Shown in pieces: positions 33,528-34,062 of a stretch of 64,000 nt of DNA. The position numbers and the translations under genes are program-made. The stretch lies in NCBI RefSeq assembly GCF_016026235.1, contig NZ_CP065613.1; one strand, given 5' to 3'. The notes beneath the pieces are model-generated. The model saw only the letters and a list, made by a program, of their open reading frames with translations, had not been told where the DNA came from and did no database searches. Origin of the DNA: Escherichia coli. GTDB lineage: Bacteria > Pseudomonadota > Gammaproteobacteria > Enterobacterales > Enterobacteriaceae. Each line of letters starts with the position of its first letter. The stretch's first letter is position 1.

Positions 33528-34062
33528 CCTTCCCTCACAGATGTCAGTACGCCAGCACGCTGTACAGGCTGTACAGCGTGCCTCCCAATCCTGCAGCCCA
33601 GAGCAGTAGAAATATTTTGGCTCCTACACTGTAGCGAGTCCGTATGCGCCGCAGTGGGGGGGAGTAACAACGCTGCTGTGTCATAACAATCCTGGTCTTT
33701 TTTTAGACATATTTTTTCTTTGTCCGGAAAGTACTTTTCCGGATATGGCGTCAGAATTTATTGATTCACCAACGGCAACTTTCTCTGGATAAAGAATTCC
33801 GGATACCATGTTCTGCACATACTGAGTGAGTCGATGAGCGGAATGTTGTCCGACATATCTTGCATGTAGCCGTATATTCCGTTTCACTCTGCTGTCACCG
33901 CATCCCGTATAGAGCAGCCTGAAATCGCTCAGAGTTCCCAGTCCAAGTTTCATTAATGCCCGTGTGGCAATTAGACTGGCCCCCTGAATCTCCAGACAAC
34001 CAGTATCACTTAAATAAGTGATAGTCTTAATACTAGTTTTTAGACTAGTCATTGGAGTACAG

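Follow-up and report, generated by a model that had tools for sequence, protein, structure and literature searches.

The 27 bp perfect palindrome found upstream of hyxA in a 64 kb stretch of Escherichia coli DNA (64,000 nt, here called the window) is, in the explanation that we consider probable on balance, an in-frame, slippage-prone coding repeat near the 3′-end of a conserved gene for a small membrane protein. It would not be an operator, and the hairpin that can form in its transcript would be a by-product. The palindrome is real and non-random, and overall it is ordinary. The more useful outcome is the small gene around it, which appears to be a constant partner of hyxA.

The first-pass annotation had the sequence of the palindrome exactly, as GCACGCTGTACAG-G-CTGTACAGCGTGC, with perfect 13 bp arms and a single central base. 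Its position had been given as 33545–33571, 18–44 nt from the hyxA ATG at 33527, and this was wrong. The palindrome is ten bases to the right, at 33555–33581, and is therefore 28–54 nt upstream of that ATG. It had also been placed beyond the stop codon of the first of two LuxR-family genes, hyxR. It is indeed found approximately 100 nt past the hyxR stop at 33681–33683; hyxR is split by IS2 in this strain. On the coding (minus) strand the palindrome reads GCACG-(CTGTACAGC)x2-GTGC and is translated as (G)T-L-Y-S-L-Y-S-V-(L). Perfect inverted repeats with arms of 13 bp or longer and no more than 3 nt of loop were seen in 3/200 first-order Markov simulations of the 64 kb window. Such a palindrome is unusual for one window, and about one site of this kind per E. 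coli genome is expected by chance. Within the window, CTGTACAG is confined to the two positions in the palindrome. Across E. coli genomes the palindrome sequence is single-copy. A dispersed repeat of the REP or BIME type was ruled out, as the sequence was found at a median of one place per genome and not in many copies.

When 5426 complete E. coli genomes were searched, the region was matched in 1884 records (1883 genomes) at 90–99.8% identity. The genes in the matching genomes are named ykgH, hyxB (an outer membrane autotransporter, also known as upaB), hyxA, hyxR (LuxR family) and ipbA (also known as fimX or hbiF), followed by betA. This region is the pathogenicity island PAI-X (PMC3789825; PMC11294581), for which the literature counts four genes, fimX and hyxRAB (PMC3789825; PMC4844996). 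The PAI-X copy in the window is decayed: hyxR contains IS2, the invertible promoter segment has been lost and fimX is frameshifted. The hyxB/upaB autotransporter gene (30427–32724) and hyxA (autA; 32766–33527) are both on the minus strand. On the same strand, the LuxR/GerE-type regulator gene hyxR (autR) is in two parts, a 3′ part at 33681–33971 and a 5′ part at 35303–35811, that are separated by an IS2 carrying the insC and insD ORFs (33972–35302, plus strand) with a 5 bp target duplication. As IS2 interrupts the gene, hyxR is inactivated in this strain. Relative to IHE3034, approximately 271 bp with the FimX-invertible promoter element is absent between ipbA and hyxR (window approximately 35812–35869, junction near 35839–35857), and this deletion appears to be bounded by short repeats of TTCAAAATGTCAG. 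The ipbA/fimX gene (35870–36432, minus strand) is 563 nt rather than 564 nt and, as it is out of frame from near codon 116, is a pseudogene here. Elsewhere in the window, a 41 bp perfect palindrome with 20 bp arms, CTGTAAATATCCTGGCATTAGTAATGCCAGGATATTTACAG, is present at 29441–29481, in the interval where the genes ykgG and ykgH converge. A perfect inverted repeat with 13 bp arms (CCTGCAGGCAGC-ATA-GCTGCCTGCAGG) is at 30360–30388, approximately 40 nt 3′ of the hyxB/upaB stop codon, and could serve as a terminator stem for hyxB/upaB.

The palindrome upstream of hyxA had been placed in the interval between two regulatory genes. It is not intergenic, and the whole dyad is inside a 46 codon ORF on the minus strand (33544–33684) that was recognized from its frame, its overlap with hyxR and its conservation. 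The product is a small predicted single-pass membrane protein, MTQQRCYSPPLRRIRTRYSVGAKIFLLLWAAGLGGTLYSLYSVLAY, with an Arg-rich N-terminus and one predicted hydrophobic helix, and the palindrome codes for G-T-LYS-LYS-V-L near the C-terminus. The ATG of the ORF shares bases with the hyxR stop codon (ATGA). Between its TGA stop and the hyxA ATG is a spacer of 16 nt (33528–33543, minus strand) that includes the Shine-Dalgarno-like sequence GAGGGAAGG. The ATGA overlap and the tight spacing suggest that the ORF is translated. PGAP calls it a hypothetical protein in some genomes and leaves it out in most. The exact protein was found on more than 100 contigs in public databases; the names in use are 'hypothetical' in E. 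coli and 'putative inner membrane protein' in Salmonella. Several database copies (P0109, P0113 and P0114) stop abruptly within the LYSLYS segment, which probably reflects breaks in short-read contigs at the palindrome.

A full HMMER scan with HyxA returned homologues of 31–54% identity, and the contigs and the genome and metagenome loci were then inspected. When five HyxA sequences were used as queries, two loci were found in species-representative genomes and 15 in metagenomes, while a word-indexed protein search with HyxA returned E. coli sequences only. The distant HyxA matches P0042–44 (L003 and L004) were discarded as they are from error-ridden E. coli assemblies. Directly upstream of the hyxA homologues in six lineages is an ORF of 44–48 codons, or 34 codons in locus L014 (L005, L006/L024, L007, L008, L009, L013, L014 and L028-30), and the neighbouring HyxA homologues are only 37–54% identical to HyxA. 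The coordinates of the ORF are 1912–2046 in L005, 416–556 in L006, 770–910 in L007 and 506–652 in L009. The encoded proteins share an Arg-rich N-terminus, the motif RYSxGAKIF and a hydrophobic stretch ending in LYxLYxVLxY. They are 34–61% identical to the E. coli protein, which is similar to the identities of HyxA itself, and the start, the stop and the open frame are kept in these diverged relatives while the DNA diverges. The gap from the stop codon of the small ORF to the hyxA ATG ranges from 16 to 20 nt in Escherichia-like loci and shrinks to 1 nt in Salmonella, and in L014 the two codons overlap. The small ORF was not detectable in L010-12, which have an AT-rich hyxA homologue, in L015/16, where the homologue is 31% identical, or in L026, L027 and L031. 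In the AT-rich L010–L012 (2824–3000), hyxR-like and hyxA-like genes are kept with a comparable gap of approximately 150–177 nt between them and no recognisable small ORF, and a CaiF/GrlA-family gene is next, in the place where an autotransporter would be.

By position, STM0717 appears to be the Salmonella counterpart of the small ORF. The STM0717 protein is homologous to the E. coli small protein (43–48% identity), and the gene is directly upstream of the hyxA homologue STM0718 and downstream of a FimB/FimX-type invertase and its switch. STM0717 and STM0718 are part of the phase-variable T1-antigen locus, in which the genes downstream of them are driven by the switch promoter (PMC11294581). 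The Salmonella locus differs from PAI-X in that hyxR is not present, the gap between the stop codon and the ATG is a single nucleotide and the palindrome is absent, with only 5–6 Watson-Crick pairs of 13. As the small ORF is kept beside hyxA homologues, including in Salmonella, which lacks hyxR, the two genes form a conserved module. Judged on this conservation, the small ORF appears to be a real, conserved gene for a small membrane protein, with translation predicted. PAI-X would then hold a fifth gene, one that is absent from the four-gene account in the literature and from most RefSeq annotations of E. coli.

The sequence of the repeat suggests how the symmetry came about. The palindrome is built on two tandem copies of the 9 bp unit CTGTACAGC, which encodes Leu-Tyr-Ser (33559–33576, minus strand). 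The first 8 nt of the unit are self-complementary (Leu-Tyr-Ser as CTG-TAC-AG(C)), and the codons on either side, for Gly-Thr and for Ser-Val-Leu, read GCACG and CGTGC. A Leu-Tyr-Ser unit written as a self-complementary 8-mer and doubled in tandem would produce most of the dyad, and the flanking codons would extend it by happenstance. Replication slippage would hold the two units identical and let their number vary from 1 to 3 without loss of the frame, and the template-switch 'perfection' of a quasi-palindrome possibly assists it. The perfect symmetry could then be accounted for without any DNA-binding protein.

Variation among isolates, where the copy number ranges from 1 to 3, is consistent with this. 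A single copy, which leaves an 18 bp palindrome, was found in 8 complete genomes; 6 others have three. The corresponding 43 aa and 49 aa variants of the small protein are each present on at least three haplotype backgrounds. As the copy variants sit on several backgrounds, the repeat grows and shrinks recurrently and always in frame, and this pattern indicates that slippage is the probable cause. The two units no longer match each other in relatives (CTGTACTGT/CTGTATTGC in L005 and TTGTTCGGA/TTGTACAGC in L006), and the identical units of E. coli have therefore probably been homogenised recently. The peptide persists in these relatives while the DNA dyad decays. The unit is thus polymorphic in copy number and recurrently so across backgrounds, as in coding repeats that are subject to slipped-strand mispairing. 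It differs from the classical contingency loci in two respects: as the length of the unit is divisible by three, a change in copy number does not switch the gene ON or OFF by frameshift, and variation is rare (14/approximately 1884 genomes).

The perfect two-copy form was present in 1331/approximately 1884 PAI-X-positive genomes. A 31 nt query was used for this count, as 45 nt queries were confounded by a SNP in the flank. About 28% of the PAI-X-positive complete genomes do not have the perfect two-copy palindrome and have an asymmetric dyad or another copy number. Among six sampled genomes with one mismatch in a 61 nt query centred on the region of the palindrome, five had ACG>ATG (T36M) in one arm, and the sixth differs only outside the palindrome. 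A common E. coli haplotype (L033–L037, found in Eco889, KE21 and others) has ACG>ATG (T36M) in the 5′ arm, at the position equivalent to 33578 in the window.

The first-pass annotation had interpreted the palindrome as a lux-box-like operator, autoregulatory or cross-regulatory, immediately upstream of a second LuxR-family gene. That gene is hyxA, and no LuxR signal was found in it at the sequence level. HyxA had no LuxR/GerE match in Pfam, NCBIfam or PDB sequence-profile searches and no BLASTP similarity to HyxR. However, its AlphaFold model (pLDDT 77) resembles response regulators, matching full-length FixJ, StyR, RcsB and VraR, with Foldseek E-values of 8e-6 to 1e-3 for full-length FixJ, RcsB and VraR. 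By predicted fold only, HyxA would be a FixJ/NarL/RcsB-like response-regulator protein of the NarL/FixJ type, with a receiver and an HTH domain, and not an autoinducer receptor. HyxR matches only GerE (PF00196) in Pfam and also has no autoinducer-binding domain. The lux box of Vibrio fischeri is a 20 bp even dyad, CTGTA-N6-TACAG or CTG-N10-CAG, centred near −42.5 of the promoter and bound by the AHL-binding LuxR. The palindrome resembles it in having CTGTA and TACAG arranged as a dyad upstream of a gene whose product has a LuxR-type HTH. Here, however, the arrangement is CTGTA-CAGGCTG-TACAG (N7), or CTG-N11-CAG, with an odd centre and a length of 27 bp. The palindrome further differs from the lux box in being inside coding sequence with no promoter-like site detectable nearby, and in having HyxR and HyxA, without autoinducer domains, as its neighbours.

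This operator reading, in which HyxR, HyxA or some other protein of the LuxR/GerE type would bind the dyad as a dimer and control an internal hyxA promoter, is in our view very unlikely. Its attraction is a perfect dyad at 28–54 nt upstream of the hyxA ATG, close to genes for one protein with a GerE HTH domain and another with a FixJ/RcsB-like predicted fold. AutA (HyxA) is an activator and AutR (HyxR) a repressor, and in vitro both shift a upaB promoter probe that extends from −170 to +30 of the ATG in EMSA (PMC4844996). In addition, hyxR and hyxA have been reported not to be co-transcribed (PMC4844996), which would demand a promoter nearby. However, the palindrome is coding sequence of the small gene, and a consensus scan of the minus strand from 33528 to 33800, which weak promoters could escape at the threshold used, turned up neither promoter-like hexamers nor a sigma-70-like site.

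No second site for such an operator was found in the island. The first-pass annotation had proposed that related half-sites be sought in the genome and in the autotransporter promoter; apart from the palindrome itself, the window, the IHE3034 island and the upaB probe returned only chance-level matches. With up to 3 mismatches allowed, no other match to the half-site with fewer than two mismatches was present in the window. In the intact island of IHE3034 there was no relative with fewer than three mismatches, and the remaining hits were self-matches or at chance level. The AutA/AutR–upaB system involves the identical proteins and island, and the 200 bp upaB probe is the only DNA that they have been shown to bind (PMC4844996), but nothing in that probe resembles the palindrome half-site. 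In its equivalent in the window (PupaB; 32695–32894, minus strand), the best half-site match had 5/13 mismatches, which is the mode expected by chance, and no CTGTA, TACAG or GTAC core was present. The half-sites also diverge in L005, L006 and L007, where only 8–10 Watson-Crick pairs are left though both regulators are kept, and several pairs survive only as G.T, which is meaningless for a DNA dyad. Finally, the asymmetric dyads and altered copy numbers in more than a quarter of E. coli carriers (about 28%) speak against an operator, as do the odd central spacing and the lack of an autoinducer domain. The lux-box interpretation is thus not supported by these results.

The suggestion that the palindrome could form a stable hairpin as RNA was borne out, with a 12 bp stem and a 3 nt loop at a computed −19.6 kcal/mol, both alone and in its sequence context. 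As the hairpin is inside the small ORF, where ribosomes would have to pass through it, it does not stand in a spacer between two genes, as had been envisaged. If it were a transcription terminator or attenuator, it would split hyxR from the hyxA transcript. The stem is GC-rich, and Zhuge et al. obtained no RT-PCR product over three intergenic regions, that between hyxR and hyxA included, and on this basis took each gene to be a transcription unit of its own (PMC4844996). If no transcript crosses the hyxR–hyxA interval, hyxA would need its own promoter near the palindrome. However, the bases after the stem are UGGCGUACUGAC (TGGCGTACTGAC), and as there is no U-tract the hairpin is not an intrinsic terminator. 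It was not listed in a terminator scan, and it lies in a translated-looking ORF with a stop codon 16 nt from the hyxA start. Against a break in transcription, hyxRAB has been treated as an operon under the FimX-invertible promoter, with the genes rising together in RNA-seq (PMC12922286), and the switch promoter of Salmonella drives genes past STM0717 and STM0718 (PMC11294581). The ATGA overlap and the 16 nt spacer likewise argue for a single mRNA, against the report of separate units. We regard a terminator or attenuator as highly improbable.

A selected role for the hairpin in the mRNA of the small ORF is possible, though we consider it rather doubtful. The hairpin could modulate ribosome flow or termination–reinitiation at hyxA, or protect the transcript or direct its processing, and the number of repeat copies could tune the strength of the stem, for which energies of −10.3, −19.6 and −23.9 kcal/mol were computed for one, two and three copies, respectively. 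Its placement fits such a role: the stem, which is stable in context, ends 8 nt before the stop codon of the small ORF, and the hyxA start is 16 nt further on. The overlap of hyxR and the small ORF, the short spacer to hyxA and the stable stem near the end of a cistron are also features of ATGA-coupled gene pairs and intra-cistronic hairpins. The tight, conserved gene spacing suggests that translation of hyxA may be coupled to that of the small ORF. In the single folds for E. coli, L005 and L006, the Shine-Dalgarno and AUG region of hyxA (33483–33546, minus strand) pairs with approximately codons 7–10 of hyxA. Across five lineages the RNAalifold consensus was weak (−3.1 kcal/mol) and did not bear out a stem that sequesters the Shine-Dalgarno sequence. 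No Rfam match was found in 32500–36500 at a permissive threshold.

With synonymous codons drawn at random for the unchanged peptide, the probability of a minimum free energy at or below that observed was approximately 0.001 or less for E. coli, the sequence in which the palindrome was ascertained, 0.002 for L005 and 0.03 for L006. These tests are significant and favour an RNA element, whereas the value for L007 was 0.25, and the two Salmonella types gave 0.06 and 0.37. In L007, little or no hairpin is left (−3.7 kcal/mol), and that of Salmonella, at about −5 to −7 kcal/mol, is a short stem of different pairs, yet the peptide and the presumed coupling persist. Among 11 sequences of relatives, which are from few, related lineages, 81% of pair cells were standard pairs. 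Four pairs had changed on both sides in these 11 related sequences, a number reached in 11/500 shuffles. Double changes retain pairing at columns 9–33 (C-G, A-U and U-A), 13–29 and 11–31. The covariation score was 0.317 compared with 0.200 in shuffles, and slid controls were all much lower, but the structure was taken from one of the few, related lineages in the alignment, which inflates such scores. The correction of quasi-palindromes by template switching also yields complementary double changes without selection. The frequent C>U variant in E. coli is compatible with the RNA helix, as it forms a U.G wobble (−17.8 kcal/mol). Against this, natural variants with mismatches in the stem are found in L008 and L017, and synonymous-site identity within the hairpin does not clearly exceed the baseline set by hyxA. 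Codon choice and the few compensatory changes thus point only weakly to selection on the structure itself. In the closely related Salmonella-type loci L030, L029 and L028, columns 15 and 27 of alignment A5 are occupied by G-C, G.U and A-U. Both sites are synonymous, and when the E. coli hairpin register is applied TTG or TTA (Leu) pairs with TAC or TAT (Tyr), but the pair is not within the minimum-energy fold of Salmonella.

A more elaborate version, in which the hairpin is a selected RNA device that sets ribosome reinitiation on hyxA, and the 9 bp repeat a heritable three-step rheostat (about −10, −20 and −24 kcal/mol) that acts on top of the ON/OFF switch of FimX, appears unlikely. If the palindrome is, as we favour, a coding repeat maintained by slippage, the mRNA hairpin would be a consequence that is simply unwound by translating ribosomes and has no dedicated regulatory role.

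These findings remove a tempting 'lux box' annotation as unsupported. PAI-X would gain a fifth conserved gene, for a 46 residue membrane protein that accompanies HyxA/AutA, including in the T1-antigen locus of Salmonella. Both hyxA and hyxR affect UpaB expression, K1 capsule, acid resistance, O-antigen chain length and serum resistance (PMC4844996; PMC3789825). As these phenotypes depend on the two genes and the region between them is coding, earlier deletions and insertions in the 'intergenic' hyxR–hyxA region may have struck the small gene or its presumed coupling with hyxA. A functional hairpin would offer a modest instance of a repeat that serves both as coding sequence and as an RNA structure of tunable strength. 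Were the rheostat to prove true, this control of hyxA would bear on a protein that activates the UpaB adhesin and also modulates serum resistance and the length of the O-antigen.
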